DNA from: Saprospira sp. CCB-QB6 | GTDB taxonomy: Bacteria > Bacteroidota > Bacteroidia > Chitinophagales > Saprospiraceae | Assembly (NCBI RefSeq): GCF_028464065.1 | Contig: NZ_CP116808.1 | Location: 1,263,886 to 1,327,885, forward strand | DNA length: 64,000 bases | Reading direction: 5' to 3' | Shown here: positions 11,907 to 60,606 of the stretch, in pieces | Position numbering within the stretch: the first letter of the stretch is position 1 | Layout: every line of letters begins with the position of its first letter | Made by a program: the position numbers and the translations under genes | Notes under the pieces: model-generated | Told to the model about the DNA's origin: nothing | The model's input: only the letters and a program-made list of their open reading frames with translations | Databases searched by the model: none

Positions 11907-12039
11907 AGGAGCGAAGCGACTGGCCTAGCGATGTGCAGCAGTGGCGCGCAGCGCCAGACCCAGCCAGCTTGCTGGCGCAGGGCCGAGCGAATAGCGAGCT
12001 GCGCAACGTAGCGCCTGCCGTAGGCAGGAGGCCCCAAAA
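11907..12039 (-). repeat. GC-rich modular repeat copy E (beta-type, minus orientation)
   Basis: GGAGCGAAGCGACTGGCCTAGCGATGTGCAGCAGTGGCGCGCAGCGCCAGACCCAGCCAGCTTGCTGGCGCAGGGCCGAGCGAATAGCGAGCTGCGCAACGTAGCGCCTGCCGTAGGCAGGAGGCCCCAAAAC. Confidence 0.8.
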
Positions 12040-12078
12040 CAGACAGACAAAAAAGCCTCACCCAACAATTAGAAGTTT

Positions 12079-15000
12079 ATGCAAAAAAAAGCAACAGAAG
12101 CGCAGTTCTTCTTTTCTCAACTGCTCAAGCTACAGCAAGTAGATCAACCTTTGGGGGCCAAATATCAGGCATTGGATGCCATTTTGGTCCAGCTATTTTT
12201 ACAATTGACCGAAAAAGAGCGGCTACATTTTAGTGATCGCTCGGCCCGAATTGCCTTTTTATCGCATAAGGAGGATTTGAGTCGTTCTGTACAATGGCGG
12301 ATTTATCAGATTATCAAGCGGGCGCGATGGATTCGCAGAAAGGAGCTGGATCCTACGGCTGGGCAATATGCCTCGGCCCTAAAAACTGTGGCCTTTGCCA
12401 TTGCGGCCCTTTGTCATGTTCCTTTGCCCGAAGAATTGCGGGCCTATTTGCCCACAGATGAAGAGGAGGACCAAGAAGATCGCAATCCGTTTCCCTTAAA
12501 AGAAGGGATTATTGAGCAGCTCAAAGTGGTGGTTTTGCAAATTGATGCCGCTCAAGAGCTCATCATTTGCCAGCCTTATGGAGAAGAATATACCGATCAG
12601 CTGCGGTTGCGTTATAATGTGCCTGAGATTAACGCCCAGTTTAATAAGACGATCGAGTTGATGCAAGATCATTTTCCTTCTGGGGCCATTTTACAATTGG
12701 TCAATGTCTTGGTAGAAGAATCGGGGATTTTGTTGCCCAAGCGCATCATTTTAGAGCCCGACTACTTGGTCGATGTGACCAGCATAGCCGAATGTTTTCA
12801 GCCGCAGGGCGCTTCGCCCTATTTGTTTTTGCTCAAAAAGTTTGCAAGCTATGAAAATAGCCTGCCCCTGATGTTGGGAAATATTGCCAACCGCTTTTTG
12901 GACCTCTTGAGCAAGAACCCCAAATTAGATTTTCAGGAAGAGTTTAAGAAGCTTTTTAGCCTCAATCCCTTGGGCTTTGCCGACTTTAAGGATACGGATA
13001 TTCGCAAGACCTATCATGAGGCCAAAAATCACTTCATCAATCTCCAACATATTATCCTCAATGAGTTTCCCAAGCTGGGCATTGATCGAGATCGCATTTT
13101 GTTGGAGCCCTCTTTTTACTCGGCCCTCTATGGGATTCAGGGTCGTTTGGACCTTTGGCAGCCGCCAGCAGAAGGCGATGATAAGGCCTTAATTGTGGAG
13201 TTGAAGAGTGGCAAAACCTTTATGCCCAATAAATACAATCTTAACCATAACCACTATGTGCAGACCTTGCTCTATGGCTTGCTGACCCAATCGGTTTATC
13301 CCAACTATAAGAGTTTGGCCCATATTCTTTACTCCAAATTGCAAGAGAAACCGCTGCGCCTAGCCCCTAGCACGCAGTTTAAGGAAGATGAGGCCTTGGC
13401 CATTCGCAACCAGATGGTCATTATGGAGCGACAGCTGGCCCAATTGGACCAAAAATCACTGGAAGAATATGGCCTTTTGCATCAATTGGGGCCTGCAATT
13501 TTGCCCAAAGCGAGCGGCTATACCGCCAGAGGATTGGAGGAGTTTGAAAACTGCTTTTCTAATTTAAGCGAGCTGGAACGTCGCTATTTTATGGCCTTTT
13601 GCAGCTTTATTGCCAAGGAACAAATTTTAGCCAAAACGGGAGTTGAAGGAAATGATCGCGCCAATGGGCAAGCGGGACTTTGGCTCAGCCAAAGAGCCGA
13701 TAAAGACGAACATTTTGAGCTTTTGGCTGGCCTAAAGTTGATTGAAAATAATAGCGAAGAGGAACCGCCTATTCTCCGTTTTAAGCGAACGGAGGTTACC
13801 AATCCCCTCGCCAACTTTAGACAGGGAGATATTGCGATTTTGTATCCCGAAATGGGCCAAGAAGACAATGTTTTGGAGCATCAGATTTTTAAAGGCTCTA
13901 TTTCGGAAATCAATGCCGAAGAACTTTCCTTCAAGCTCTATTCGCCCCAATGTAGCGGAGCTGTTTTTGAGGGCCCACAAACTTGGAGTTTAGAGCATGA
14001 TATGCTTGATAAAGGCTTTACAGTCCAATATCAATCGCTCTTCAATTTCATGAATTTCCATAGCGCAAAGCGCCAGCTTTTATTGGGCCAAAGGGCCCCA
14101 CAAGAAAGCAGTGCCCCCAAGAGTCGCGACTTTATGGAGCCCCATTTGGGCCAAGACCAAAAGCGCATTCTCAACAAGGCCTTGGATGCCCAAGACTACT
14201 TTTTGTTGGTGGGCCCTCCAGGCACGGGCAAAACCAAATTCATGTTGGCCCAAATGGTCGAATATCTGCACCGCAACAGCCAAGAAAACATCTTACTTTT
14301 GGCCTATACCAACCGAGCAGTCGATGAAATTTGCGAGGCGATTGAAGAAGTGGGCATAGACGACTATCTGCGGATGGGCAGCCGCTATTCTTGCGATCCT
14401 CGCTTTGAGCAGCGCATGTTTTCGGTCCAAACAGAGCAGGTAGATAGCCGCAAAGATCTTAGAGCGACCATAGAAAAGCATCGGGTTTTTGTGTCTACGG
14501 TTTCTACCATGCTCAACCGCCCGCTTTTGCTCAAGCTCAAGCAGTTTAATACAGCCATTATTGATGAAGCTTCACAAATTTTGGAGCCGATGCTGGTTGG
14601 ACTACTCCCCCATTTTCAGCGCTTTGTTTTGATTGGCGATCATAAGCAATTGCCCGCCGTAGTGTTGCAAGATAAGGAGCAATCAGCGGTTAGTGATGAG
14701 CTTTTGCAAAGCATTGGCTTGCGCAATCGCCGCAATTCGCTCTTTGAGCGCTTGTTTGAACAGGCCCAAAAAGAGGCTTGGACTTGCTGCTACGATCAGT
14801 TGCAGCATCAGGGGCGGATGCATGCCGATATTTCCCGCTTTCCTAGCCAATTTTTCTATGATAATAAGTTGCTAGAGCTGCCCGAAGATAATCCCGTGGG
14901 AGCTTGGCAGCAAGCGCCCCTCCCCTTTGCCGCCAAGGCCGATGCCCCTCGCTTAGAGCAGGCTTTGGCCCAGCATCGTCTGCTGTTTATTCCCAGCCAA

Positions 15001-15462
15001 TCGGATTATCTGGGCAATAGCAAGACCAATGAAGAGGAGGCGATTCGGATTGGGGAATTAGTCGATGCCTTTCGGAATTTATACGAGCAGCAGGGCGGCG
15101 GTTTTGCCGTAGAGGATTTGGGGATTATCACGCCTTTTCGGGCGCAGATTGCCCAGATTCGCCATGTTTTGGCCCAATATAATATGGGCTATGAGCAATG
15201 TACCATTGATACCGTAGAGCGCTATCAGGGGGGCGCCCGCAAAATTATTCTTTTGTCGCTGGCCGTTAATATGGGCCATCAATTGCCCGCCATCGTCTCC
15301 CTTTCTGATGATGAGCAGGTGGACCGCAAACTCAATGTGGCCCTTACCCGCGCAAGGCAGCAGCTGGTGGTTTTGGGCAATCCCAAACTATTGGCCAATG
15401 ACCCCCGCTATGCGGCCCTAATAGCCTGGATCAAAGAACGAGACGGCTATTTTATCCCTTAG
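12079..15462 (+). CDS. Single-polypeptide nuclease-helicase: RecB-like PD-(D/E)xK nuclease core plus Upf1/DNA2-like SF1 helicase
   Basis: Helicase motifs LLVGPPGTGKT (Walker A), IIDEASQ (motif II), VLIGDHKQLPAVV, RMHADISRFPSQFFYDNKL and NVALTRARQQLVVLG. At about residues 355-400, GRLDLW...ALIVELKSGK...HYVQTLLYGLL gives D / ExK / QxxxY, the RecB/Cas4/AddB nuclease signature. Confidence 0.75.
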   Translation: MQKKATEAQFFFSQLLKLQQVDQPLGAKYQALDAILVQLFLQLTEKERLHFSDRSARIAFLSHKEDLSRSVQWRIYQIIKRARWIRRKELDPTAGQYASALKTVAFAIAALCHVPLPEELRAYLPTDEEEDQEDRNPFPLKEGIIEQLKVVVLQIDAAQELIICQPYGEEYTDQLRLRYNVPEINAQFNKTIELMQDHFPSGAILQLVNVLVEESGILLPKRIILEPDYLVDVTSIAECFQPQGASPYLFLLKKFASYENSLPLMLGNIANRFLDLLSKNPKLDFQEEFKKLFSLNPLGFADFKDTDIRKTYHEAKNHFINLQHIILNEFPKLGIDRDRILLEPSFYSALYGIQGRLDLWQPPAEGDDKALIVELKSGKTFMPNKYNLNHNHYVQTLLYGLLTQSVYPNYKSLAHILYSKLQEKPLRLAPSTQFKEDEALAIRNQMVIMERQLAQLDQKSLEEYGLLHQLGPAILPKASGYTARGLEEFENCFSNLSELERRYFMAFCSFIAKEQILAKTGVEGNDRANGQAGLWLSQRADKDEHFELLAGLKLIENNSEEEPPILRFKRTEVTNPLANFRQGDIAILYPEMGQEDNVLEHQIFKGSISEINAEELSFKLYSPQCSGAVFEGPQTWSLEHDMLDKGFTVQYQSLFNFMNFHSAKRQLLLGQRAPQESSAPKSRDFMEPHLGQDQKRILNKALDAQDYFLLVGPPGTGKTKFMLAQMVEYLHRNSQENILLLAYTNRAVDEICEAIEEVGIDDYLRMGSRYSCDPRFEQRMFSVQTEQVDSRKDLRATIEKHRVFVSTVSTMLNRPLLLKLKQFNTAIIDEASQILEPMLVGLLPHFQRFVLIGDHKQLPAVVLQDKEQSAVSDELLQSIGLRNRRNSLFERLFEQAQKEAWTCCYDQLQHQGRMHADISRFPSQFFYDNKLLELPEDNPVGAWQQAPLPFAAKADAPRLEQALAQHRLLFIPSQSDYLGNSKTNEEEAIRIGELVDAFRNLYEQQGGGFAVEDLGIITPFRAQIAQIRHVLAQYNMGYEQCTIDTVERYQGGARKIILLSLAVNMGHQLPAIVSLSDDEQVDRKLNVALTRARQQLVVLGNPKLLANDPRYAALIAWIKERDGYFIP

Positions 15463-15514
15463 TTTTGATCCCTTTATTTTATCCCTCTAGTAGTTAATTA
15501 CTAGGGGGATATTT

Positions 15515-15676
15515 TTTTGGGGCCTCCTGCCTACGGCAGGCGCTACGTTCCGCAGCTCGCAGGTCTGCTCGGCCCTTCGCCGCCTGCGGCGGCTCGGTCT
15601 GGCCCTGCGGGCCACTGCTGCACATCGCTAGGCCGTTTGGCCTGCGGCCATGGGCTGCAGGTTTCAACCTACAGGC
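15515..15676 (+). repeat. GC-rich modular repeat copy F (beta-type) plus trailing hairpins GGCCTGCGGCC and CTGCAGGTTTCAACCTACAG
   Basis: TTTTGGGGCCTCCTGCCTACGGCAGGCGCTACGTTCCGCAGCTCGCAGGTCTGCTCGGCCCTTCGCCGCCTGCGGCGGCTCGGTCTGGCCCTGCGGGCCACTGCTGCACATCGCTAGGCC. Confidence 0.8.
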
Positions 15677-15964
15677 CAATATGATATAAATCCCCCCTAG
15701 GGCCAAGGCCCTAGGCTATTAAATCTATCATCCCCTCCTTCGAGGGGATTCGCCTTTCCTCCTGAACTTGAACAGTTAAGCGAACAAAATCTTTAACTAC
15801 CAATTATTCGCTTACTCTTCAAACATAAACTTAGCACCTAAGGGCCAATACAGAAAATTACGTCTCGGTCTAATTGACCAATAGAGCCAAACAAAAAGCC
15901 CCCTCGAAGGAGGGGGCGACTATTACTATTAGGACAAGGGCTTAAATACAACCGCATCCAATAC

Positions 15965-16075
15965 TTCGCTGCTAAGCGAGCCTAGCTGATTTGTAGTAGG
16001 GTCCGTCCAGAAAAAAAAGATAGGGCCTTAGACAGTCCTCCCTAGCTAAATGCATTTTGCAAGAAGGCCTTAAAC
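15965..16075 (+). repeat. Second repeat family, copy 2, followed by two ATGCATTTTGCARGAA motifs
   Basis: TTCGCTGCTAAGCGAGCCTAGCTGATTTGTAGTAGGGTCCGTCCAGAAAAAAAAGATAGGGCCTTAGACA. Compare 2590-2670. Confidence 0.55.
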
Positions 16076-16157
16076 AACTCTTTAGAGCCATATGCATTTT
16101 GCAGGAAACTCTAAATAAGGCCGAAGAAGGAGAACAAAAGCAACAACTAAAGATGAG

Positions 16158-16279
16158 CGGCCTAGCGATGCGGCGGGGTGGCGCAAAGCGCCAGACCCAG
16201 GCGGCAAAGCCGCCGCAGGGCCGAGCAGACCTGCGAGCCCCAAAGCGTAGCGCCTGCCGTAGGCAGGAGGCCCCAAAAC
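16158..16279 (-). repeat. GC-rich modular repeat copy G (beta-type, minus orientation)
   Basis: GGCCTAGCGATGCGGCGGGGTGGCGCAAAGCGCCAGACCCAGGCGGCAAAGCCGCCGCAGGGCCGAGCAGACCTGCGAGCCCCAAAGCGTAGCGCCTGCCGTAGGCAGGAGGCCCCAAAAC. Confidence 0.8.
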
Positions 16280-16292
16280 TATAGTATAGTTT

Positions 16293-16330
16293 AAAACAAA
16301 AAAGGCCAGCTCCTGGGGAGCTGACCTTCA
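16293..16330 (-). terminator. Rho-independent terminator of the giant adhesin gene (minus strand: GGTCAGCTCC-CCA-GGAGCTGGCC then TTTTTTGTTTT)
   Basis: Hairpin at 16304-16328 with the A-tract at 16293-16303 on the plus strand. Lies 45 bp downstream of the stop at 16375. Confidence 0.6.
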
Positions 16331-16374
16331 AAGTTAGTTAGGGAAGGGGGTTAAAACGCCCCCTTCGAGTTGGT

Positions 16375-19300
16375 CTAAGGCTTAACGATTTCAAAGTTCA
16401 GTTGGCTTTGGGTCGTTTCGATTTGAACATTGAGGTAATAGGTACCTGCGGGCAGGTCTCGGATGGCGTCCAGTGTAATGAGGTCGCCAGCGCGAACGGT
16501 TTGGCTGCTCGTAAAGACTTGGCGGCCGAGCACATCTAGGAGTTTGAAATTCACTTGGCTCGTAGTTTTGAGCTGGCTAAAGCGAACATTAACAAAATCG
16601 CTAGCGGGGTTCGGGAATACCGTAACATCGATACTTGCGGCTTCCTTATTATTTACTGCGCGAACTTCAGAGTACTCAAAGTCTCCGTTGAAGTCGACTT
16701 GGCGCAGGCGGTAATAAGTGAGATTTTCGTAGCTATTATTATCGGTATAGCTATAGTAATTGGCGGTTGAGCTATTGCCCTGACCTTGGACAAAATCGAT
16801 TTGGCTAAAGTCAGTTTCATAGTCAAACATGCGTTCTACTTCAAAGCCGCGGTTATCTCTTTCTGTTTCGGTGGCCCAAGAGAGGAGCACAGAAGAAGAA
16901 GATTGGCGTTCGGCATCGAAGAAGAGCCATTCGATGGGGAAATCGACATAAGTGTTAGCATCGCGCCAGTCGTTATCGTCGAGTCCGTCATTGTTGGGAG
17001 TTGGAGCGCCAGTACCTAGGGCGCTACCGTTCACATTATCATCAAAGAGATCGGCTAGTCCGTCGTTATCTGCATCAATCCAGAAAGGAGAGCTAGGATC
17101 GAGGAAGGGAGGAGCCATATTATTTGTATAGCTCGCACCATTGAGGTTATCTAACCAATCGGGCAGGCCATCGCCATCGCTATCGATATTGGGATAATGA
17201 GTGGGGTTACCGCCATTGGTTACATAAGCGGCAGCCATTTGGATAATTTCGTCAGCGGCATTGCCATCGCCGGCGGTAGCGCCACCGAATCCGTTATCAA
17301 AGCCTTCTGCCCAGTCGTATCCGCCATCATTATCAGAGTCGAGATCGAGATAATCTACGGGAGCTGTTCCATCATTGTTATCCTCATTGGGAGTAGCGCC
17401 GATGTTTGCGCCTGTATTTTGGTTAGCGGCATCTAGGCCTTCGTAGATATCGAGTACTCCGTTGCCGTTGGCATCGGCTCCAGAGGGAGCGGCGAAAGTG
17501 GGGCAAGTAGAGCAAACGGCTTCTAGGTAATCTGGAATACCGTCATTATCGGCATCAATATCATAAATATCGGGAACACCGTCGCCGTCGGTATCTAGGG
17601 TATTGATTGCACCAGCTTGGAGATCAGACCAGCCGTCGCCATTAGCGTCGGTGATGGGTCCATCTTCAATTTGGCCATCGAGGGTACCGTTAGCGGGAGA
17701 GTCGGTATTGGCGGCTCCGGTTACTGCGCCTGCTGCGGCTTCGACTACATCTGTAATTCCGTCATTATCGCTATCGAGATCGAGGAAGTTGGGCGTAGCG
17801 TCGGCATCTGCGTTGGCATCGGGATAGCTATTGGGTTGGCCATCATTGTCGTTATCGGTTCCGGTCAAGATAAGTACAGCAGCGATATTATCGGCAGTAC
17901 CATCATTGTTGGGGTCACCGTCTACGGCATCGGCAAAACCATCGCCATCTGCATCGGTAAATGTATCTACGCGGCCATCGCCATCGGCATCGGTTCCATA
18001 GGCTTCCAAGATATCTTGTACCCCATCGTTATCGCTATCGAGGTCATAGATATTGAGGAGACCGTCGGCATCGAAATCGCCATTGGGGTAAGTATCGGGT
18101 TGGCCGTCGTTGTTATTATCGGCTCCAGTAAGGATAAGCACCTGAGCGCTATTCTCGGCGGTACCGTCATTTCCGACATCGCCATCGAGGACATCATGCA
18201 AGCCGTCATTATCGGTATCGATAAAGTCGTCGGCAAAGCCGTCTCCGTTAGTATCGGTTCCCCCAGCTTCCACGACATCGGCGATACCGTCGTTATCGCT
18301 ATCGAGGTCATAGATATTGAGGAGACCGTCGCTATCTGCGTCTCCGTTAGGATAATTATCGGGAGTACCGTCATTATTGACATCATTGCCTGTAAGGATA
18401 AGTGCTTGAGCGCTATTTTCGGCGGTACCGTCGTTTCCGACATCACCATCGAGAACATCATGTAAGCCATCGTTATCGGTATCGCTGAAGTTATCGGCTA
18501 GGCCATCTCCGTTGGTATCGGTTCCGCCAGCTTCCACTACATCAGTAATACCATCATTATCCGCATCGAGATCGAGTTGGTTAGGGATACCATCGCCATC
18601 AACATCATTGCTAGGATAGCTATCAGCGAAGCCGTCATTATTAGTATCTGCGCCTGTAACTTGGAGAGCATTAGCTGTATTTTCAGCAGTGCCATCATTT
18701 CCGACATCGCCATCTACGGTATCATGCAAGCCATCGCCATCGGCATCCACAAAATTATCAGCAAAGCCATCGCCATCTGCATCGGTCCCACCAGCTTCTA
18801 CCACATCAGGAATACCGTCATTATCGCTATCGAGGTCAAATTGGTTAGGAATGCCATCGCCATCATTATCGGCAAAGAAGTCATTATTACCATCTGCATC
18901 GGTATCCAACAAGAGAGAAGTAGAGTTAGCGATTAGACAGCTAGGTTGAGGACCACAGGGGCTAGTGCCTTCGGGGCCATCGGTATCATCGTTATCTACA
19001 GCATCTACAAGGCCATCGCCATCAGAGTCAGTCAAATCATCGAGAATGCCGTCTCCGTTGGTATCTACGCCACCAATTTCAACTAGGTCAGGAATACCGT
19101 CATTATCGTTATCCAAATCTAGGTGATTGGGGATGCCATCGCCATCGAGGTCAAGATTAGCGCAAGTCCCGTTAGCGTTAAGTCCGCCACAAGTGGGGAA
19201 ATCAGCATCAGCATAATTGGGGATTCCATCAGCATCTAAGTCGGAATCAGGATCAGGAAGGCCATTAGTACAGCTCCAGCCGTTTACCCCTTCAAAAAAG

Positions 19301-23730: not shown

Positions 23731-23776
23731 CTAAATGCTGTTAAAATGTGTTTGATAAAAATGCTTATGTAATTTA

Positions 23777-23915
23777 TTTTTTGGGGCTGCCCCTCCTTTC
23801 AGTCGGGTCGGGCTGTTTCGCAGCTCGCTCTTCGCTCGGCCCTGCGCCGCCTCTGGCGGCTGGGTCTGGCCCTTCGGGCCACTGCTGTCCATCCCTCAGC
23901 CAGTCGCTTCGCTCC
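23777..23915 (+). repeat. GC-rich modular repeat copy H (alpha-type)
   Basis: TTTTTTGGGGCTGCCCCTCCTTTCAGTCGGGTCGGGCTGTTTCGCAGCTCGCTCTTCGCTCGGCCCTGCGCCGCCTCTGGCGGCTGGGTCTGGCCCTTCGGGCCACTGCTGTCCATCCCTCAGCCAGTCGCTTCGCTCC. Confidence 0.8.
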
Positions 23916-26407: not shown

Positions 26408-26439
26408 TATGAATATTGTTTGTCCTAGTTTGTTTTTCG

Positions 26440-26587
26440 GTCCAAGCGGGCCAAAGGCCCGCCGGCCTAGCGATGTGCAGCAGTGCGGCGCAGCCGCAGA
26501 CCAAGGCCGTCAGGCCGCAGGGCCGAGCAGACTTGCGAGCTGCGAAACGTAGCGCCGACGAGCGTAGCGAGGCGGAGGCCCCAAAAC
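26440..26587 (-). repeat. GC-rich modular repeat copy I (beta-type, minus orientation)
   Basis: GGCCTAGCGATGTGCAGCAGTGCGGCGCAGCCGCAGACCAAGGCCGTCAGGCCGCAGGGCCGAGCAGACTTGCGAGCTGCGAAACGTAGCGCC...GGCGGAGGCCCCAAAAC. Confidence 0.8.
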
Positions 26588-26760
26588 GGCAGCGAGCTGC
26601 GACAACCAGCCTCAAAGAGGCGCCAGTTCGACGAAGTAAACGACAACAAGGTCTTTAGACCGCAGTTCGACGACCGAAGGGAGTAACCGCCGCAAGGCGA
26701 AGCCGCGCGACAACAAGGCTGCAAGCCGCAGTTCGACGACCGGAGGGAGTAACGCCCCAA
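26588..26760. repeat. Tandem 45-60-bp motif GACAACAAGG..(TTTAGACC)GCAGTTCGACGACCG(A/G)AGGGAGTAAC, 2 full and 1 partial copy
   Basis: Read directly. A fourth copy at 54981-55027 (CAACAAGCCCTTTAGGCTGCAGTTCGACGGCCAGAGGGAGTAACC) is adjacent to repeat copy S. Confidence 0.6.
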
Positions 26761-26835
26761 ATCTCCCACAGCATCTTATAATAAACGCTTCTGCTACAAA
26801 AAAAAGGGCCAAAAGGCCCTAAATTTCTCTTAAAA

Positions 26836-27393: not shown

Positions 27394-27399
27394 AATTGG

Positions 27400-27966: not shown

Positions 27967-28031
27967 AGTTCTTAATTATTTTTTTCTAGGGCGAAGATAA
28001 ACATTCTTCGAACTCAAAACTGCGATTTTCT

Positions 28032-28445
28032 ATGTCTATTCATCATCATCCCATTTCTCTCCAAGCCAAAAGCCGAGGCTTCCACCTGATTACTCAAGAA
28101 GTTTTGCAACAACTGCCCAAACTTCCCCAAAATGGCCTTTTTCAACTCTTTATTCAACATACTTCGGCCGGACTCACCATCAACGAGAATGCAGATCCCG
28201 ATGTCCGTATGGATTTTGAAACCATTTTTAATCGCCTAGTCCCCGAAAACCAAAAGGGCCTCTTACACACCCTAGAAGGTCCCGACGATATGCCCGCCCA
28301 CATTAAAACCGCTTTTACGGGCACAAGTTTAAGCATTCCCATTATTCACGGCCAACTCGCCCTCGGAACCTGGCAAGGCATCTACCTTTGTGAGTTCAGA
28401 AACCATGGCGGTCGCCGCCAATTAGTCGCTACGATTATGGATTAG
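28032..28445 (+). CDS. YjbQ/UPF0047 family protein (secondary thiamine-phosphate synthase-like)
   Basis: HTSAGLTINENADPDVRMD...PAHIKTAFTGTSLSIPIIHGQLALGTWQGIYLCEF matches the YjbQ family pattern. 137 aa. Confidence 0.75.
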   Translation: MSIHHHPISLQAKSRGFHLITQEVLQQLPKLPQNGLFQLFIQHTSAGLTINENADPDVRMDFETIFNRLVPENQKGLLHTLEGPDDMPAHIKTAFTGTSLSIPIIHGQLALGTWQGIYLCEFRNHGGRRQLVATIMD

Positions 28446-28584
28446 GATTTAGGAATCTCTTTATCATCCCTGTAGGTTAAAACCTACAGCAACAATGGCA
28501 TTACTGCGCAATGAACTATAAATAAGGGTTTAAACCCTCACAAAGTTAATCATTTGAATGCACAAGATGCTGAATAGTTGGTGA

Positions 28585-28709
28585 TTTTGGGGCCTCCGCC
28601 TCGCTTCGCTCCTCGGCGCTACGTTCCGCAGCTCGCTGTTCGCTCGGCCCTGCGCTGCCAAAGGCAGCTTGGTCTGGCCCTTCGGGCCACTGCTGCACAT
28701 CGCTAGGCC
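28585..28709 (+). repeat. GC-rich modular repeat copy J (beta-type); hairpin CTGTAGGTTAAAACCTACAG lies just upstream at 28470-28489
   Basis: TTTTGGGGCCTCCGCCTCGCTTCGCTCCTCGGCGCTACGTTCCGCAGCTCGCTGTTCGCTCGGCCCTGCGCTGCCAAAGGCAGCTTGGTCTGGCCCTTCGGGCCACTGCTGCACATCGCTAGGCC. Confidence 0.8.
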
Positions 28710-28849
28710 AGGCGGGCCTTCTAAATCCATAAACAGATTTGGCTCTTTCTATAGACTTTCGTAATTTTTTAGGCCCTTAGGGCTAACCATCATCCCCTTT
28801 GGGGTATTACTCATTGAGCCCACAAGCTTGCCCCAGAAACCTCTTTTTT

Positions 28850-29422
28850 ATGGATATTTCAATTGCCGCCCTCCAAGCCGGAGACCAAAGGGCCTATAAA
28901 GCCCTCTACGAACAAGCTTATTGGTATTGTGCCAGCGCCCTACTCCAACAGGGCGCCCAAGAAACCGATGCCAAAGCTATCTTTAACCGTGCCCTAGAGA
29001 TTTTTTGGACCAAAATGCAAACGCCCGATTTTGAGCTCAGCTGCCAACCCAAAACTTATCTCTATGCCGTTTGCCGAAACCTCTGGCTCAAACAGCTCCG
29101 CAAACAAAAGAAAAACCCCATCCTCCAAGATGAAGAACGCCTACTCCAAGAGCCCCTCCCCCATTTGGCCCAAGAAGATATCTATTTTTTAGAGGAAGAA
29201 GAGGCCGATCCACTGCTCATGACGGCCATGAAAGCCCTAAACAGCATGAAAAATACCGATTGCCAAAAAGTATTGGAGCTCTACTATTTTGAGAAGAAAT
29301 CACATCGAGAAATTGAGCAAATCATGGGCTTTGCCGATAACTACTCAAAGGTCAAGAAAAATAGCTGTATCAAACAGCTCAAAAAACAATTGCTGCGCCT
29401 TTTGGGCCAGCCCAAAGCTTAA
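28850..29422 (+). CDS. ECF-type RNA polymerase sigma-70 factor
   Basis: Start at Met18 of the ORF (MDISIAALQ...). Region 4 / HTH: KVLELYYFEKKSHREIEQIMGFADNYSKVKKNSCIKQLKKQL. About 190 aa. Confidence 0.65.
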   Translation: MDISIAALQAGDQRAYKALYEQAYWYCASALLQQGAQETDAKAIFNRALEIFWTKMQTPDFELSCQPKTYLYAVCRNLWLKQLRKQKKNPILQDEERLLQEPLPHLAQEDIYFLEEEEADPLLMTAMKALNSMKNTDCQKVLELYYFEKKSHREIEQIMGFADNYSKVKKNSCIKQLKKQLLRLLGQPKA

Positions 29423-29426
29423 ACCT

Positions 29427-30311
29427 ATGGATTTTTATAGCCCCGAATGGCTGGATGCCTTCCAGCAAAACCAACTCTCTTCCGAAGAACGAGCCGCTAC
29501 CCTAGCCTTGGCCCAAAAAGAACCCGAATATGCCGCCCAATTAAAAGCACATGGCATCGCTATCCAAGCTATTCAGGCTTTTGGCCGCCAAACTGCCGTA
29601 GAAAAAATGGCCCAAGAACTAGCCGAAGAGGGCCTATTTGAACGCCCTATCGAACAAGCGCTACAAGCTAAAGCCGCCCAAAAACAGATTGGCCAAATTG
29701 CCCAAGAACTAGAAACAGAAGGCTTTTTTGCCCCAGAAAAAAAGAAGGAGATAAAGGTTCGCCCCCTCCCCCGCTGGCGCCCAATTATGGGCATTGCCGC
29801 TAGCCTAATTTTATTACTTAGCCTAGGTTATTGGTGGCAAGAATCTCAAGCGCTCCCCCGCTGGTCTCAAGAATATACCTTGGCTAGCGCAACATCTACC
29901 CAAAAAGAATTACAACTGCTTTTGAGCGCTCAAGGCTTTGGCCAAAATGAAGCCGCCCTCAGAAACCTCCAACTCGGCCTCAATGCCTATGAGAAAAAAG
30001 ATTGGGAGAAGGCTAAAACAGAATTACAAACCTACCAAAAGGCCAATTCTATCTTTGCCCAAGAAGAAACCCAGTTTTATCTAGGCCATATCGCCTTTGA
30101 ACTCGGCCAAATTGATCAAGCCAAAACCTACTGGCAAGAACTCTCCCAATTGCCTAGCCTCCCCCCCAATATTTCGGAACAACTTAGCTGGTATCAAGCT
30201 TTGCTCGCCCTGCGCGAAAATCAAAAAGAGCTGGCCAAAAACTACCTAAAAAAGGTCCCTCCAGGCCCCTATCAAGAAAAAGCAAAACAACTTCTGCAAT
30301 CACTAGAGTAA
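29427..30311 (+). CDS. Putative anti-sigma factor (single-pass membrane, TPR-like C-terminal domain)
   Basis: Start at Met47 (MDFYSPEWLDAF...), 4 bp after the sigma stop, so translationally coupled. Transmembrane segment IMGIAASLILLLSLGYWW. C-terminal helical repeats. Confidence 0.45.
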   Translation: MDFYSPEWLDAFQQNQLSSEERAATLALAQKEPEYAAQLKAHGIAIQAIQAFGRQTAVEKMAQELAEEGLFERPIEQALQAKAAQKQIGQIAQELETEGFFAPEKKKEIKVRPLPRWRPIMGIAASLILLLSLGYWWQESQALPRWSQEYTLASATSTQKELQLLLSAQGFGQNEAALRNLQLGLNAYEKKDWEKAKTELQTYQKANSIFAQEETQFYLGHIAFELGQIDQAKTYWQELSQLPSLPPNISEQLSWYQALLALRENQKELAKNYLKKVPPGPYQEKAKQLLQSLE

Positions 30312-30482
30312 AGGAGACTGTTTAAAATTTTGTGTCTACCCTTCTCTGCGCCTAGGGACAAGCCCCTAGGCGATTATTGGCCAAATCCTAACAAGCTAAA
30401 GGCCCAAATTTTATTCTAATACACAAAATCCTGAACAGTCTCGAGTAAAGCAAGGCCTTGCTCCTTACTAGAATAATAGATC

Positions 30483-30509
30483 ATCCCCTCCTCGGAGGGG
30501 ATTTTTTTG
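30483..30509 (+). terminator. Hairpin ATCCCCTCC-TC-GGAGGGGAT plus T7 tract
   Basis: Read directly. The same CCCCTCC/GGAGGGG stem recurs at 15722-15745 and 15897-15918. Confidence 0.5.
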
Positions 30510-30552
30510 TCCCCCTGCTGGACAGAGATCTAAGTGAGTTGGTCCAAAGACA

Positions 30553-30585
30553 AAAGGGGCTGCTCGATATCGAGCAGCCCCTTTG
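30553..30585 (-). terminator. Hairpin GGGGCTGCTCGATATCGAGCAGCCCC with a flanking T-tract on the minus strand
   Basis: Perfect 11-bp stem, about 20 bp downstream of the stop of 30605..32287. Confidence 0.5.
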
Positions 30586-30604
30586 CAGCAGGTCCTAAGC
30601 GATC

Positions 30605-32287
30605 TTAGAACTTAGCAATGACACCAATTTTTCCATTGATGCCCAATTGCTGATAGAGGTACCAGCGTTGGTATTTGTTATTAAACAGGTTGTTTCCTTC
30701 TACAAAGAAAGCAAAGCGTTGTTTGTCTCCTTTTCCGAGCCAGTAAGTAGCATTTAGGTTAAGGTCAAACAAGCCGCCAAGGGTTTCGCTTTCGGTAGCT
30801 AAAGCAGGGAGATAAGGCACGCCAGCATTGACAAAGAGGTCGGCCCCAACTTCTAGATTGCCTTTTTTATATTTCAGGCCAAAGCTAGATTCCAAAACAG
30901 GCAGATGATAAGCGGCTTCAGCTGTTCCTCCGCTATAATTATTGAAAGCTAGAGCGCCCTTAAAGTAGAGTTCCTCCATAATTTGGAGTTCTACATCTGC
31001 GGCTACAGTCAAGCGGCTGAGTGTATCATAGGCCAGACCAAATTTCAGATAATTGCTTTCTAGGGTATTATAGAAAAGGGGTTGTTGGCTCAAATTGGCA
31101 TAAGAGACATTAAAGTCGTAGCCTAAGCGTTTAATCTTCCCTTTGAGTCCCCCATAAAAGCGGCTTTCTTGCGTATGTTCCCAATGCAGGCGCTCTGTAT
31201 CCAAGAAGGGATTATAAGTAGAGAGCTGCATGAGCGTATTTTCTCGGATGTTGCCCGACCAACCTGCATAGGGCACAAATTGCCCCCCTAAAATGACATA
31301 ACTAAAATCGACATCGGGCAAGACAAAGTATTTTCCAGCATTACTTCCTAAGCGGGCCCCCAAGCGGCTTTTGAAATTCCCAAAATTGAGATCTGTTCCT
31401 GCATGCAATTGGGCCAGGCTACGGCTTTGGCTGCTATCCGTAGTTGTATAGCGGCTATACAATAGCTCTGCTTCGGCAAAAAAGCGATGTTGGGGGCTGC
31501 GGCTATCGCCCACCCATTTTTCAAAAACAAGGCGAGGGCGGATATTTAGCTCTCCTACCCCATGATAAGATCTGGTATTATAGAGGTCCAAATCGGCTCT
31601 GTAATTCATTTCTTGTTTATTGCTTTTGGCATTGAAGAGGTGAATATTGGCCCCTACCGTTAGGTAGCGTTGTTTAAGACTATCTTCGGCTAGGCCCGAG
31701 CTATCTTGAGCGAAGGGATAGAGGCTATCACCCAAGTTTTCGAGCAGTTGGTGGTAGCCGTAATAGCGATAATTATTGAGGTCCATATTTAGGGCACCAC
31801 CAACAGCTAAACCATTAGACAGAAAATAATCGCCATTTAGGTTAATAGACGTTTTGCCAAAAACTTGGTCCTCCAAATTACCTTGGCTGCTATGGTGTTT
31901 GGCTGTAGCCCCAAAGCGTACTTTATCATTATTGCTATTGTGGTAAGATAGCTCTAGCAAAGGAGAGAGTGGGAAACCGATACCCGCCTTTGTATAAAAG
32001 TTGAGACTTTTGGGTGGCGTAGGCACAGGCATCGCCAAGGGGCGGATATTGGGTTCGGGATAATTGACCGAAACAATTCGTTCGGGGACCAGGTAGGTCA
32101 ATTTTTGGCCTGCGCTGGTATCCAAATCGGGTAAAAGAGGCTGAGCCTCCTGCTTTTTACTTTCGGCTAATTGGGCCTTAAAGGGTTTGACTAGCTCGGT
32201 CCCTACATCATTGATTTGGGCCTTTAGGCTGGGGGCAAAAAGCCCAACTGCCAATGCTAAACAAAGTGATTTACTATATTTTATCAT
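30605..32287 (-). CDS. Outer-membrane beta-barrel protein (porin-like), hypothetical
   Basis: Start at Met19 (MIKYSKSLCLALAVGLFAPSLKAQ signal peptide). Alternating Tyr/Gly/Asn-rich amphipathic strands. C-terminal ...GVIAKF with a terminal Phe is typical of OM beta-barrels. Confidence 0.55.
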   Translation of the reverse strand: MIKYSKSLCLALAVGLFAPSLKAQINDVGTELVKPFKAQLAESKKQEAQPLLPDLDTSAGQKLTYLVPERIVSVNYPEPNIRPLAMPVPTPPKSLNFYTKAGIGFPLSPLLELSYHNSNNDKVRFGATAKHHSSQGNLEDQVFGKTSINLNGDYFLSNGLAVGGALNMDLNNYRYYGYHQLLENLGDSLYPFAQDSSGLAEDSLKQRYLTVGANIHLFNAKSNKQEMNYRADLDLYNTRSYHGVGELNIRPRLVFEKWVGDSRSPQHRFFAEAELLYSRYTTTDSSQSRSLAQLHAGTDLNFGNFKSRLGARLGSNAGKYFVLPDVDFSYVILGGQFVPYAGWSGNIRENTLMQLSTYNPFLDTERLHWEHTQESRFYGGLKGKIKRLGYDFNVSYANLSQQPLFYNTLESNYLKFGLAYDTLSRLTVAADVELQIMEELYFKGALAFNNYSGGTAEAAYHLPVLESSFGLKYKKGNLEVGADLFVNAGVPYLPALATESETLGGLFDLNLNATYWLGKGDKQRFAFFVEGNNLFNNKYQRWYLYQQLGINGKIGVIAKF

Positions 32288-32324
32288 TTGATTTTTCTTT
32301 AGACGATCTATTTTAGAGTGGACA

Positions 32325-32484
32325 GGCGGCGAAGCCGCCAAAAGGAGCGCAGCGACGCGGCTGAGGGATGGACAGCAGTGGCCCGCAGGGCCAGACCAAG
32401 CTGCCTTTGGCAGCGCAGGGCCGAGCGAACAGCGAGCTGCGGAACAGCCCGACCCGCCCGAAGGGCGGGGCAGCCCCTAAAAAG
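32325..32484 (-). repeat. GC-rich modular repeat copy K (alpha-type, minus orientation)
   Basis: GGCGGCGAAGCCGCCAAAAGGAGCGCAGCGACGCGGCTGAGGGATGGACAGCAGTGGCCCGCAGGGCCAGACCAAGCTGCCTTTGGCAGCGCAGGGCCGAGCGAACAGCGAGCTGCGGAACAGCCCGACCCGCCCGAAGGGCGGGGCAGCCCCTAAAAAG. Confidence 0.8.
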
Positions 32485-32490
32485 AAAAAT

Positions 32491-35400
32491 TTAATCAATC
32501 ATTTCCAGTTCGCCACTGCCATCATTGCGGCGCAGGCGGCTATTAGAAGAAATAGCTTGTTTGACCTGAGCCAGTTTATCTTGGGCCTCCTTCACAATTT
32601 CGGGTTCGCCGTTGAAGTTGCCCAATAGGCTTTCTAGGGTACCTTTGGCCGCATCTAGTTTGCCTTGTTCGGCATAGATATCGGCAATGAGGATAAAGTT
32701 GCGCGCCAACCAGTTGAGGTGTTGGCCCAGCAGCTTATTATTTTGGAAAGCCAGTTCTAGTGCGCCATCCAAATCGCGTTGGATATAAGTAATTTTGGCA
32801 ATTTGGTAATGGGCTTCAGAGGCGTTGATATCGTCATCAACCAGCTTGAGGCTCTCCTTATAAGACTGCATAGCTTTAGCATTTTCACCCGCTAATTGTT
32901 GTGCTTTAGCCAGGTAGAAATGGGCTTCGGCCTTGTTGGCGGCGCTAGCATTGGGTTCTTTGAGGAAATTTGTGGCGAGTCCCTTCAAGGCCTGATAATT
33001 TTGGCCATAATAGGCAGAGCGCATACCGAATAAGCGAGCTTCTGAGCGGTTTTCGGGGCTAGAAGCGAACTGTTCTAGGCCTTGGAAATAAGTGAGAGCC
33101 TTGGCATAATCCTCAGTAATATGGTAGCAAATTCGACCTGCCAACAGATTGGCTTCCTCGGCCATAGCGGGGGGGGCTTTGGGCTCCTTGGCTTCTGCTA
33201 CATAAGAGAAATCGCTCAGGGCCTTGGGATATTCCTTGAGGTTATAGTAGGCAATACCTCGGTTGAGGTGGGCCGACATACTATTGAGTCCCTTGGGAAA
33301 GCGATCGAGATATTTGCTGTAATTATCGGCAGCAGCAGGCCAGTTTTCCTGATCGAAAGAAGAGGCAGCCGACTCATAAAGGAGAGAATCTGCGGCCATA
33401 TCAGAGAAATTATAGCCTTGCAAAGTAGAGGCATAAGCCATAAAGCCGTCGGGATCGCCTTGATCGATATAGATTTTTCGGATAAAGTTGAGGGCGGCCT
33501 TTGCTTCCTCTGTTTGGACATTATTGCTCACCACCGTCTTGAAATAATCGAGGGCTTCGCGGTTCATATCGCGGCTATAAGAGAGCACTCCCAATTTATA
33601 GAGGGCTTTGGCGGTATACTCGCTATCGGGATATTTCACGATCAGTTGGTCAAAGCTTCCTTTGGCCTGATCGAATTCATTTTGGTTAATCTGTGTGCTT
33701 CCCATGGCATAAAGCGCATCATCGGCATAGATTGAACTAGGGTGTTGGCCCACCAAATCGGCTAGGGTGCGCAACTGCTTTTGGGGTTGGTTGGTCAAGC
33801 TATAAATCAAGCTCAGCTGATACATGGCATAATCCTCATTGGGGAAATTATTGGCCACAATGCGTTCGTAATAGCCAGCGGCGGCGGTATAATTATTCGT
33901 TCCCCCCAGATAGAGGTAGCAATCGCCAGCACGGCCGAGGGCATCGGGATAGACAAAATTAGAGACATGTCGATCATTAATTTTGCTCAGGCGGGGCTCA
34001 ATATATTTGACCGCCTTCACAAATTCGCCCACGGCATTATCGTAGCTATTTTTGCGGAGGTAATTGTAGCCTAGGCCATAATGGGCCGTTCCTTTAGTGG
34101 AATTGGCGGGTAATTGAGGAGCAGCAGCCGCTACGGTAGTAAAGCGATTATACTCATCAATACTTTTATCAAATTGGTCTAATTGGAAAAGCGCTTCAGC
34201 TTTCCAGAAATGGGCCAGGGCCGTGGTTTCGGTATGCACAGCCGAGCCCAAAGACTCATTAAAGCGCTCTACGGCTTTGGTGAAATTGCTGGCTTTATAA
34301 TGCTGCACACCACGGAAATAAGCCACTTTTTGGAAGGCCTCTTTGAGAGAAGGCTCGCTGCGGTCGATACTGCGCAAAATGCTCAGGGCTTTTTCATAAT
34401 CGCGAGTATTGAGGAAGAGCTGGCTCATCAAGTTTTGCGATTCGTTGCTGTATTTGGTGTTGAGCAACTCCATAAAAGCCGAAATAGCGTCATTGTCTAG
34501 GCCCAATTCATAAGACAATTTGGCATAATTCATTTTAGCGTCAATCTGCAGCTCTTTGTCCTGCTTCATTTCTGCGGCCTGCTTAAAAGAGAGGCGAGCT
34601 TCCTCTTTTCGGCCTAGTTTGAGTTGACAATCGGCTAGATTGTAGCGAGCATTTTGCCCCAACTTATTATCTAATCGAGCAATTTGCTCAAAGTTAGCAG
34701 CGGCATCCTCATATTTTCCAGCTCGATATTGAGTATAAGCCAATTGATAGAAGATATCTTCTGTCATTTTGGGCGTTTTGCTGGCGTATTCTTCCATATA
34801 AGGAAGCGCTTTTTGATAATTCTTCTTTTCGTAATAGGCTTGGCCCACCGCCTGCACAATCGTCATGCGTTCCCGCACCGTATTGCTTTTGGTGTAGGGT
34901 TCGCCGTAGGCAATTGTTTTATCATAATCCTTTTTCATAAAGTGGATCTGCGTAATATAGGTAGGGACCACCTTTTCGTAGCGGCTCGATTTATTGGCAA
35001 TTTCAAAGCTCGCCAAGGCCGCATCAAAGTCTTTCAGGAAGAAAGAGCAGAGACCATAATAGTAGTTGGCGGGAAAAGTATACTCGCTTTTGGTCCCTTT
35101 GATTTGGGCAAAAACGGGCTGGGCTTTCTTAAAGTCCTTAGACACAAAATAACAGTAAGCCAACTGGAATTTGGCCTCAATCAACTCCTCATTGCTTAGG
35201 TCATTAAGATCCTTAAAGTTGATGCTACTGAGGTATTTAATGGCCTTTTTATAATCTCTTTGGGCATAGTAATAACGCCCCACTTCCAATTTGGCCTGAG
35301 CTGCCACAGACATGGGCTCATATTTCTTAATCAGGACCAAAAGTTTGTTTTCGGCATCGGGCCGCTCCAAGCGCAGGGCCGCAAGAGCCGCATAAAGTTC

Positions 35401-35640
35401 TGCTTTTGGGCGATACAATTCAGGCAATTCCTGCTCTGCATAAAGCGCCTGATTAGGGGCCAACAATTGGCCCAATTCATCTTCGGCCTTGCCATAAAGG
35501 GCTTGTTCATAAAATTCGATGGCCGCATGATATGCCGCCTGAGGGTCTTTGTATACGGCTGTTTGCTGCGCTTGTATGCCCTGCAAACTCGCAAGACTCA
35601 GCAGTCCGCCATAGACCAGTTTTTTCAGCTTTGGTTGCAT
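32491..35640 (-). CDS. Large (1049 aa) tetratricopeptide-repeat protein, secreted/periplasmic
   Basis: Signal peptide MQPKLKKLVYGGLLSLASLQGIQAQ. Dozens of TPR-like helical repeats (AxxYY..A...G.Y..A periodicity) throughout. Confidence 0.75.
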   Translation of the reverse strand: MQPKLKKLVYGGLLSLASLQGIQAQQTAVYKDPQAAYHAAIEFYEQALYGKAEDELGQLLAPNQALYAEQELPELYRPKAELYAALAALRLERPDAENKLLVLIKKYEPMSVAAQAKLEVGRYYYAQRDYKKAIKYLSSINFKDLNDLSNEELIEAKFQLAYCYFVSKDFKKAQPVFAQIKGTKSEYTFPANYYYGLCSFFLKDFDAALASFEIANKSSRYEKVVPTYITQIHFMKKDYDKTIAYGEPYTKSNTVRERMTIVQAVGQAYYEKKNYQKALPYMEEYASKTPKMTEDIFYQLAYTQYRAGKYEDAAANFEQIARLDNKLGQNARYNLADCQLKLGRKEEARLSFKQAAEMKQDKELQIDAKMNYAKLSYELGLDNDAISAFMELLNTKYSNESQNLMSQLFLNTRDYEKALSILRSIDRSEPSLKEAFQKVAYFRGVQHYKASNFTKAVERFNESLGSAVHTETTALAHFWKAEALFQLDQFDKSIDEYNRFTTVAAAAPQLPANSTKGTAHYGLGYNYLRKNSYDNAVGEFVKAVKYIEPRLSKINDRHVSNFVYPDALGRAGDCYLYLGGTNNYTAAAGYYERIVANNFPNEDYAMYQLSLIYSLTNQPQKQLRTLADLVGQHPSSIYADDALYAMGSTQINQNEFDQAKGSFDQLIVKYPDSEYTAKALYKLGVLSYSRDMNREALDYFKTVVSNNVQTEEAKAALNFIRKIYIDQGDPDGFMAYASTLQGYNFSDMAADSLLYESAASSFDQENWPAAADNYSKYLDRFPKGLNSMSAHLNRGIAYYNLKEYPKALSDFSYVAEAKEPKAPPAMAEEANLLAGRICYHITEDYAKALTYFQGLEQFASSPENRSEARLFGMRSAYYGQNYQALKGLATNFLKEPNASAANKAEAHFYLAKAQQLAGENAKAMQSYKESLKLVDDDINASEAHYQIAKITYIQRDLDGALELAFQNNKLLGQHLNWLARNFILIADIYAEQGKLDAAKGTLESLLGNFNGEPEIVKEAQDKLAQVKQAISSNSRLRRNDGSGELEMID

Positions 35641-35730
35641 GAAGTTCTATTTAATTTTTAAGGAGTCTTTCCTAGAGAATCATTCTAATAAGTTCTTAGC
35701 TAAAGATACAGTTTTTTAACTGTTTTATGC

Positions 35731-35878
35731 TTTTGGGGCCTCCGCAGCAAAGCTGCGGCGCTACGCTTTGGGGCTCGCAAGTCTGCTCGGCCCTTCGCTT
35801 TTTCGCTACGCTCAAAAGCTCGGTCTGGCCTGCGGCCACCCCGCCGCATCGCTAGGCCAAGGCGGCTGCGCCGCCTCC
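35731..35878 (+). repeat. GC-rich modular repeat copy L (beta-type)
   Basis: TTTTGGGGCCTCCGCAGCAAAGCTGCGGCGCTACGCTTTGGGGCTCGCAAGTCTGCTCGGCCC...GGTCTGGCCTGCGGCCACCCCGCCGCATCGCTAGGCCAAGGCGGCTGCGCCGCCTCC. Confidence 0.8.
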
Positions 35879-58622: not shown

Positions 58623-58628
58623 CTCCAC

Positions 58629-60505: not shown

Positions 60506-60606
60506 CAAATTCGAGAAAGATAAAAAAGCGGAGGAAATAACTCCATAGCCTATTTTTTCTCGTATTTTAAAAATCGCTTGCCCCAATCACCTTAAACTCT
60601 AGTCCC

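Follow-up and report, generated by a model that had tools for sequence, protein, structure and literature searches.

The 64-kb window of the Saprospira sp. CCB-QB6 chromosome described here (the whole 64,000-nucleotide stretch of NZ_CP116808.1 that was analyzed) carries 21 copies, designated A to U, of a GC-rich, non-coding, intergenic repeat of 125-135 nt that forms multiple hairpins. The copies were located in three ways, by repeat search, with an nhmmer profile and with a covariance model (R1), and all three give the same 21, a density of about 1 per 3 kb that takes up ~4% of the window (Table 1). Between the copies lie housekeeping genes, among them rpsA, ABC-F, HtrA, hutH, dapF, tsaB, cobO and an ECF sigma factor, and such genes occur in both of the interval types defined below. 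No transposase, integrase or reverse transcriptase is present among the window genes, and no tRNA genes were found in the window. The 21 copies strictly alternate in orientation along the chromosome (-,+,-,+ ... -), an order with a chance expectation of ~2^-20, about 1e-6.

Each copy has a sharp 5' end that carries a T-run. An interval with a minus copy on its left and a plus copy on its right, written (-,+), therefore has the TTTT ends pointing inward, and a (+,-) interval has them pointing outward. As the alternation is strict, every second interval is a TTTT-inward bracket with the TTTTGGGG ends facing in, and the window holds ten (-,+) intervals, all TTTT-inward, and ten (+,-) intervals, all TTTT-outward. 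The former measure 2.0-7.5 kb and contain genes in every case, while the latter range from 128 to 5165 bp and include three tight doublets with spacers of 128-165 bp.

The same arrangement is seen in a replication set of metagenome contigs gathered by pattern scan (120 loci, 664 kb, 234 copies). There, 103 of 120 unique adjacencies alternate and 17 join copies of the same orientation (p=3e-16), the alternating ones being 63 (+,-) and 40 (-,+). The (-,+) intervals have a minimum of 1077 bp and a median of 3.5 kb, whereas the (+,-) intervals are bimodal, with 29 of them tight, at <320 bp (interval asymmetry p=3e-14). Tight pairs are always (+,-), that is, tail-to-tail with TTTT outward, and not one tight (-,+) pair occurs among these adjacencies. 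In the loci of S. grandis DSM 2844, about 21 adjacencies alternate versus 4-5 that do not, and the copies of S. grandis Lewin alternate save at two rearranged sites. A closer look at the metagenome set shows that single copies alternate with neighboring singles at 96:10, whereas singles next to a doublet are alternating or direct at 14:11, a random phase. With the doublets taken out, the chain of singles alternates at 98:12 (p=6e-18). The tight doublets are thus a second layer, placed without regard to the phase in which the singles alternate.

Copies are anchored at gene ends by the sharp end. In the metagenome set, the TTTTGGGGC end lies a median of 55 bp from the nearest end of an open reading frame (ORF), compared with 180 bp for the distal end (p=7e-20), so the gaps of 7-100 bp between gene and copy that the original prediction had described for three large genes hold in general. 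Adjoining 3' ends of ORFs number 114 and 5' ends 87, and the direction of the neighboring gene was accordingly rejected as what dictates orientation. Counted from the same adjacencies, 40 intervals are occupied at both gene ends, 34 at neither and 17 at one; a gene tends to have both of its ends occupied or none. A model in which TTTT-facing copies occupy gene ends independently does account for the polarity, for the restriction of tight pairs to (+,-) and for the longer (-,+) intervals, but it predicts ~57% alternation against the 86-91% observed, and was discarded. Genes or operons are enclosed alternately by TTTT ends, in long intervals of at least 1 kb, or by distal ends, in short intervals that often hold one small gene.

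Within the repeat, G+C is ~0.7, compared with 46% for the genome. Its 5' boundary, read in its own orientation, is a T-run followed by GGGGC, and its 3' end, ...CGCTAGGCC or a covarying variant of it, runs on into a variable hairpin tail, which leaves the 3' edge fuzzy. The covariance-model structure has 8 helices, comprising a terminal helix, a long-range helix and internal hairpins. The terminal helix of 5-8 bp covaries (GGCCT/AGGCC, GGCTG/CAGCC, GGCCC/GGGCC, GCACC/GGTGC), as does the long-range helix (GCAG/CTGC, GGGG/CCCC, GCCG/CGGC, GGAG/CTCC). Three internal hairpins are hypervariable. Hardly any variation occurs in the unpaired motifs GCTCGC, GCTCGGCCC and GGTCTG, and CGCTA is likewise among the invariant motifs. 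In an alignment of 82 distinct copies, which was fitted to the covariance model and so favors structure, 96.4% of cells are paired and 423 cells carry double changes versus 145 in shuffles, with slid controls at 26-60%. An analysis with MAFFT and RNAalifold, independent of the model fit, gives an agreeing fold, and the fold is strongly supported as real by covariation.

Outside one invariant G.T pair, the mismatches in the 82 copies comprise 7 of the GT/TG type and 7 of the AC/CA type. As wobble intermediates are nearly absent and symmetric, the helices are Watson-Crick on both strands, which favors a DNA-level structure, single-stranded or cruciform, or conversion from copy to copy, over a selected RNA fold. 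An impression of strand-specific RNA structure from G.U pairs, gained from the 21 window copies, disappeared with the 82 (7 vs 7). A search of the whole window against 4227 Rfam families yields no match at gathering thresholds; at E<=10 there are only chance-level matches, on one doublet and on a copy from a distant relative. We found no description of the repeat in the searchable literature, whose coverage of journals is partial. It is a new structured repeat family of the kind represented by repetitive extragenic palindromic (REP) sequences and miniature inverted-repeat transposable elements (MITEs).

We pieced together 66 kb of S. grandis Lewin that are syntenic with the window at 84-94% nucleotide identity, and Lewin has B-G and I-S at the same sites and in the same orientations as CCB-QB6. 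Copy H is absent from Lewin alone, where the 5' region of the adhesin gene has been replaced; because DSM 2844 has H, Lewin must have lost it. In DSM 2844, where the repeat is abundant, the sites and orientations of E to L are those of CCB-QB6. The repeat is also present in an uncultured Saprospiraceae metagenome-assembled genome (MAG). A distant relative (a JGI MAG; S1 protein 85% identical, helicase 56% identical) keeps the same gene neighbors without most copies. In one of its loci (L121) a 355-aa ORF directly abuts the helicase gene, copy E has no counterpart at this orthologous junction, and there is no copy in 23 kb. Another 22 kb of the same MAG hold three diverged, AT-richer copies, of which one (L122 11999-12133) lies downstream of rpsA in the place and orientation of M, and the other two bracket two genes with their TTTT ends inward. 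By these sequence comparisons, the family is old, vertically inherited at fixed sites and expanded in Saprospira. It is specific to the family Saprospiraceae and very dense in Saprospira.

Some differences between the compared genomes lie beside the copies. In Lewin (CP002831.1, ~1393470-1394000), 4-5 units of 101 bp stand in tandem after copy I, each made of the proximal 40 nt of the element and 60 nt of other sequence. Between O and N, Lewin has a 750-aa orphan ORF (L123 5305-7557) with no Pfam or NCBIfam match, where CCB-QB6 has only the 150-bp doublet spacer and DSM 2844 has an 861-aa ORF call after O. In DSM 2844 (JH719942.1) the rpsA-side and HtrA-side halves of the region are ~1.4 Mb apart (about 1.15 vs 2.54 Mb), with the split somewhere in the O-to-N region; the distance reflects a true rearrangement or else a scaffolding error, the assembly being at scaffold level. 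The short-read metagenome contigs that carry rpsA are ~4.0-4.1 kb long, as long as the M-N interval; assemblies may thus break at copies.

Orthologous copies of Lewin and CCB-QB6 lie in the same flanking sequence but are only 60-91% identical, below the surrounding genes. The differences are patchy and consist of swaps of whole hairpins or segments; the proximal part of copy O, for example, is P-type in CCB-QB6 and of another type in Lewin. Such whole-module swaps between orthologous copies amount to gene conversion within the family. Partners of (-,+) pairs in the window resemble each other to an unusual degree (Q-R 98%, S-T 96-97%, O-P 91-94%), as do the proximal parts of E-F, I-J and M-N, and partner copies are similar in their gene-facing parts (p=0.00015). 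Neither Lewin, DSM 2844 nor the metagenome organism shows this likeness between neighbors. Similarity of the facing halves of neighbors, significant in the window and gone in the other three sources, was therefore dropped as a general rule; the homogenization arose recently in the CCB-QB6 lineage alone, or could be an effect of assembly polishing.

Inverted copies also mediate inversion. Right of U, a block of at least 5.6 kb (bestrophin to KAS, from 58429 to beyond 63999) has the opposite orientation in both S. grandis genomes. It is (-,+) bracketed, and its breakpoint falls within the T-U doublet. In Lewin the inverted block lies between two T-U-like doublets, with a truncated T copy at the breakpoint. 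Recombination between copies, which the original prediction had proposed for paired elements, is supported both by the module swaps in orthologous copies and by this neighboring block.

Table 1. Repeat copies and large genes in the 64-kb window of Saprospira sp. CCB-QB6
Feature	Position	Strand	Score or evidence	Remarks
Copy A	185..320	-	R1 90.6 bits; nhmmer	
Copy B	4183..4309	+	R1 104 bits	Site common to Lewin
Copy C	5234..5359	-	R1 92.4 bits	Site common to Lewin
Copy D	10580..10699	+	R1 101 bits	Site common to Lewin
Copy E	11922..12039	-	R1 120.6 bits	Left bracket of helicase gene; present in Lewin and DSM 2844
Copy F	15515..15634	+	R1 117.9 bits	Right bracket of helicase gene
Copy G	16159..16278	-	R1 112.8 bits	Bracket at adhesin 3' end
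Copy H	23779..23901	+	R1 105.9 bits	Bracket at adhesin 5' end; in DSM 2844, not Lewin
Copy I	26464..26586	-	R1 112.1 bits	
Copy J	28585..28709	+	R1 127.3 bits	
Copy K	32359..32481	-	R1 113.4 bits	Bracket at TPR-gene 3' end, abuts stop codon; site in Lewin and DSM 2844
Copy L	35731..35858	+	R1 102.7 bits	Bracket at TPR-gene 5' end; site in Lewin and DSM 2844
Copy M	36947..37070	-	R1 104.6 bits	Downstream of rpsA
Copy N	41146..41277	+	R1 93.4 bits	Left arm of tight doublet
Copy O	41432..41551	-	R1 74.5 bits	Right arm of tight doublet
Copy P	45566..45686	+	R1 90.6 bits	Left arm of tight doublet
Copy Q	45833..45959	-	R1 112.2 bits	Right arm of tight doublet; OmpA-family ORF reads through
Copy R	49752..49878	+	R1 112.8 bits	98% complementary to Q
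Copy S	55067..55193	-	R1 98.7 bits	
Copy T	58200..58325	+	R1 91.9 bits	Left arm of tight doublet; inversion breakpoint vs S. grandis
Copy U	58498..58621	-	R1 91.2 bits	Right arm of tight doublet; flipped with block 58429-63999+ in S. grandis
Dna2-like SF1 helicase gene, 1127 aa	12079..15462	+	ORF; Pfam AAA_11/AAA_12; 100% identical to the Saprospira sp. CCB-QB6 protein	
Giant repeat-rich adhesin gene, 2451 aa	16375..23730	-	ORF; internal 264-nt repeats	
TPR-repeat protein gene, 1049 aa	32491..35640	-	ORF; Pfam TPR families	
MAM/fn3 protein gene, 1077 aa	41613-44846		ORF	Third largest in window

The original prediction had singled out the helicase, adhesin and TPR genes as the three largest of the window, each enclosed by an inverted pair. 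The bracket coordinates of E, F, G, H, K and L hold within 1-2 bases. Copy E terminates in ...GGAGGCCCCAAAA at 12039; the T-run of copy F begins at 15512 and its TTTTGGGG start is at 15515. Copy G ends at 16278 by our measurement rather than at 16279, the rest of its bracket being as described, and the T-run of H begins at 23777. Copy K ends at ~32481-32486, abutting the stop of the TPR ORF, and L starts at 35731. The inverted-pair bracketing of the named genes is therefore accurate, but the TPR gene is the fourth largest ORF. The third largest, at 41613-44846, is also (-,+) bracketed, by O and P, and as all ten (-,+) intervals of the window are TTTT-inward brackets, bracketing is not peculiar to the largest genes. 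The three brackets are the ordinary (-,+) phase of the general arrangement, a local view of a wider pattern. The ortholog of the adhesin has a Por_Secre_tail match.

A role of the copies as terminators, also raised by the original prediction, is unlikely, since the genes keep their own. Canonical terminators consisting of a hairpin and T-run stand between the stop codon and the element at the helicase, adhesin, cobO and OmpA genes, and separate terminators sit between stop codons and elements F, G and I. The helicase terminator hairpin occupies 15480-15511, and its T-tract is the T-run that begins copy F; the adhesin terminator (16329-16301) lies between the gene and copy G. A terminator scan predicts no intrinsic terminators inside elements, in which the T-run precedes the hairpins, the reverse of intrinsic terminator order.

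The repeat is probably an alternating structured gene-end repeat that is inherited vertically and recombines, and not a cassette boundary. Its copies would behave like non-autonomous repeats of the REP or MITE type that enter next to T-runs at gene ends, and would be laid down, or kept, as inverted pairs. The parity logic would resemble that of the dif modules of Acinetobacter, where sites can be added only two at a time. Because a single insertion breaks an alternating chain, copies must either be added or kept in inverted pairs, or same-orientation neighbors must be removed. The main present-day effect of the copies may be that of dispersed inverted homology, giving conversion and inversion rather than deletion.

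Several points weigh against this interpretation. The parity is what paired birth would give, but in at least two (+,-) pairs the flanked gene is ancestral at its site (tsaB by rpsA and the 355-aa ORF by the helicase gene), and we know of no mechanism that inserts two inverted copies astride an ancestral gene. Copy M, moreover, seems older than its partners L and N, contrary to a strictly paired birth. Mobility itself is something we infer, given that no transposase or recombinase candidate was found in the sampled loci and no clean empty or filled site was seen. Target-site duplication is not seen either, the T-run being at the 5' side only and the 3' boundary fuzzy. The conserved unpaired motifs and the retention across genera also fit a selected function, and the single invariant G.T pair, if a real pair, would favor the TTTTGGGG strand. 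Lastly, strong homogenization of neighbors is confined to CCB-QB6 and could be a peculiarity of that lineage or a polishing artifact.

Two forms of simple transposition were considered for the (+,-) intervals and rejected. The first is a transposon with 135-bp terminal repeats and a transposase inside (+,-) arms. The genes of 34 such intervals are mutually unrelated; those inside (+,-) intervals encode TsaB-like, DapF, OmpA/PD40, ECF sigma, GmrSD and orphan proteins and are ancestral at their sites, and no recurrent or transposase-like ORF family occurs near copies in 730 kb of element-rich loci. The second is duplicative inversion by intramolecular replicative transposition, which fails for L-M, where tsaB keeps its ancestral orientation relative to rpsA, and also because any single addition breaks parity.

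An unlikely alternative is a chromosomal module system run by a site-specific recombinase, in which the elements would be recombination sites, in folded or duplex form, and modules would be gained or lost only in twos. A pair of modules excised between direct sites could re-integrate at any site, which would keep the alternation and make single modules invertible. The arrangement indeed recalls the pdif or dif modules of Acinetobacter Rep_3 plasmids, in which oriented sites alternate, two module classes (C and D) must alternate and be added in pairs so that parity is preserved, the loss of a site fuses modules, and inversions occur between inverted sites (PMC13141974). The Saprospira copies likewise alternate and define two interval classes, with TTTT or distal ends internal in place of C or D, and the H-less Lewin site can be compared with the fusion modules that follow site loss there (PMC13141974). 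Invariant unpaired core motifs beside variable stems, the block inverted between species with its breakpoint at elements, and the different gene content from O to N in Lewin (the 750-aa orphan ORF) and CCB-QB6 would also suit a recombinase. In contrast, gene order is kept over 66 kb between species and partly with the distant genus, the bracketed genes are core, and no recombinase gene is seen in the sampled loci. The mosaic junctions are scattered along the element, with no single core position, and resemble homologous gene conversion. The pdif sites, moreover, are 28-bp XerC/XerD sites on plasmids with shuffled accessory genes, whereas the Saprospira elements are structured, chromosomal, 125-135 nt long and set among syntenic core genes. 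The Acinetobacter modules are the closest analogue of the arrangement, by analogy and not by membership.

It is quite unlikely that single insertions in random orientation were followed by purging, with direct neighbors deleting the genes between them through RecA or slippage and inverted ones surviving. Recombination between neighboring copies is demonstrably frequent, inversions conserve the number of same-orientation neighbors while deletions remove them (a combinatorial argument), and both non-alternating Lewin sites are secondary, one through loss of H and the other through truncation of T. However, singles beside tight doublets are direct in 11 of 25 cases, at 1-9 kb, so direct neighbors are tolerated, and the doublets are at least as old as the split of CCB-QB6 and S. 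grandis. Next-nearest neighbors are always direct anyway, and purging alone does not give occupancy of both gene ends or neither.

A functional punctuation, with the copies as selected cis-acting structures at gene boundaries (sites bound by a nucleoid or looping protein, insulators or structures at RNA ends) that work only as convergent pairs, copies without a partner being lost, is very unlikely. It would draw on the invariant unpaired motifs, the copy retained downstream of rpsA across genera, the anchoring at gene ends with its occupancy bias, and the similar gene-facing parts of partners in CCB-QB6. Yet orientation is unrelated to the direction of transcription, 5' and 3' gene ends are treated alike, and the genes' own terminators lie upstream of the element. 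The genes beside partners S and T are divergent, which rules out a common transcript for the two copies. The partner similarity is missing in other genomes, stems are hypervariable between orthologous copies, G.U pairs are nearly absent, and sister lineages manage without most copies.

That each large gene moves with its two flanking copies as a cassette or composite transposon, as originally proposed, is extremely improbable: TTTT-inward inverted pairs do closely bracket genes and several CCB-QB6 (-,+) partners are each other's closest relatives, but the bracketed genes are ordinary chromosomal genes, syntenic in the same orientation in three Saprospira genomes and never absent or inverted in Lewin or DSM 2844, where E, F, G, K and L stand with them, the helicase and rpsA neighborhoods exist without brackets in the distant relative, the likeness of partners stems from conversion later than the species split (O, CCB-QB6 vs Lewin) and is missing elsewhere, and the sharp end faces inward, opposite to transposon terminal repeats. 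Judged by the refuting test that came with the original prediction, the cassette fails. The repeats are old, recombination-prone punctuation, not boundaries of mobile cassettes.

Among known repeats, REP sequences and the bacterial interspersed mosaic elements (BIMEs) and REP doublets (REPINs) built from them come close to the alternating gene-end repeat. They reach hundreds to >1000 copies in proteobacteria, are associated with RAYT transposases (Y1 type, from a single-copy gene between REPs), and within a BIME the REPs alternate. Like the Saprospira element, they are extragenic, form hairpins with compensatory variation, are inherited vertically at orthologous sites and are frequently found as inverted doublets. 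REPs, however, are single imperfect palindromes of 20-40 nt with a 5' GT[AG]G, whereas the Saprospira element is a multi-helix of 125-135 nt that begins with a T-run and GGGGC; and REP alternation is confined to one intergenic cluster, whereas Saprospira singles alternate across genes at kilobase scale. Unlike in REPINs, the two arms of a Saprospira doublet are no more alike than random copies, with values of 0.46-0.59 in the window and, in a second comparison beyond it, 0.63-0.66 vs 0.67 for random pairs. Element-rich loci totaling 730 kb yield no RAYT-like gene, the whole genome not having been searched.

The MITE-like Correia elements of Neisseria, enterobacterial ERIC, pneumococcal BOX and RUP, and Bacillus bcr1 are similarly intergenic and non-coding, with a stable fold, and act as substrates of rearrangement. 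They are 100-160 nt long, are sometimes co-transcribed, and have terminal inverted repeats, usually with target-site duplications, or are modular (BOX). The Saprospira element differs in having no terminal inverted repeats of at least 10 bp, only the terminal helix of 5-8 bp, and to our knowledge neither alternation at kilobase scale nor a fixed polarity at gene ends has been described for any of them. The attC sites, including the Vibrio cholerae repeats, share a position between genes, a length of 57-141 nt and a structure kept while sequence varies; but attC sites form one long imperfect hairpin and lie in one orientation, by intI, with small promoterless cassettes, none of which holds for the Saprospira copies. 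With the ends of IS200/IS605 elements, the repeat shares a sharp left boundary 3' of a short target (here the T-run) and subterminal hairpins in place of terminal inverted repeats; those elements make no target duplication, and none has been seen around the Saprospira copies. Strand-specific insertion relative to replication predicts co-oriented neighbors in that family, whereas the Saprospira copies alternate, and no TnpA or TnpB gene was found near any copy.

Other repeats and genes of the window were also noticed. A second repeat module of ~100 nt (TTCATGAGGG..CCCTCATTCATATAT ... GCTGTAGGTTTCAACCTACAG) is found at 41310-41410, 58368-58467 and, inverted, 28470-28549; it fills the spacers of the N-O and T-U doublets and adjoins J, its terminal hairpin alone follows F (15655-15674), and it might carry a putative promoter-like motif of the TAnnTTTG type. 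Two mutually unrelated intergenic tandem arrays (2666-2935 and 54431-54731) both have a 41-bp period, with 6.6 and 7.3 copies and 95% matches, and the latter also occurs in S. grandis Lewin. A stretch of 98 nt in the F-G spacer (15965-16062) is 88% identical to 2591-2688, which leads into the first of these arrays. Genes for a HEPN(RiboL-PSP)/Toprim protein and a GmrSD-type endonuclease (51540-53217), a likely defense pair, are absent from the syntenic Lewin region. An OmpA/PD40 ORF on the minus strand (45820-46000) is without the stop that its Lewin ortholog has after ...KVLELD and continues for 49 extra codons through Q, so that the protein may have a genuine C-terminal extension, unless a sequencing error is the cause. 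Copies can thus lengthen reading frames, as at Q, and seed spurious small ORF calls.

Dense intergenic repeats as such are familiar from bacteria. What appears to be new in Saprospira is that single copies alternate across genes at kilobase scale, in ~90% of neighbors, with polarity at gene ends, an arrangement of which we found no earlier description. There is a small chance that the chromosome is partitioned every ~1-5 kb by oriented structured sites created or kept only as convergent pairs, whether dif-like or part of a gene-end capping system read by a protein. Most genes would then lie in modules that can each be inverted or exchanged, with the alternation an active, mechanism-imposed property and not a passive remnant. 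If a mechanism does impose the alternation, it would point to a new route of paired insertion or retention, or to a recombinase or protein system that makes invertible chromosome modules. If the alternation is passive, Saprospira would offer a natural experiment on repeat orientation and genome stability, in which inversions and conversions are favored over deletions.

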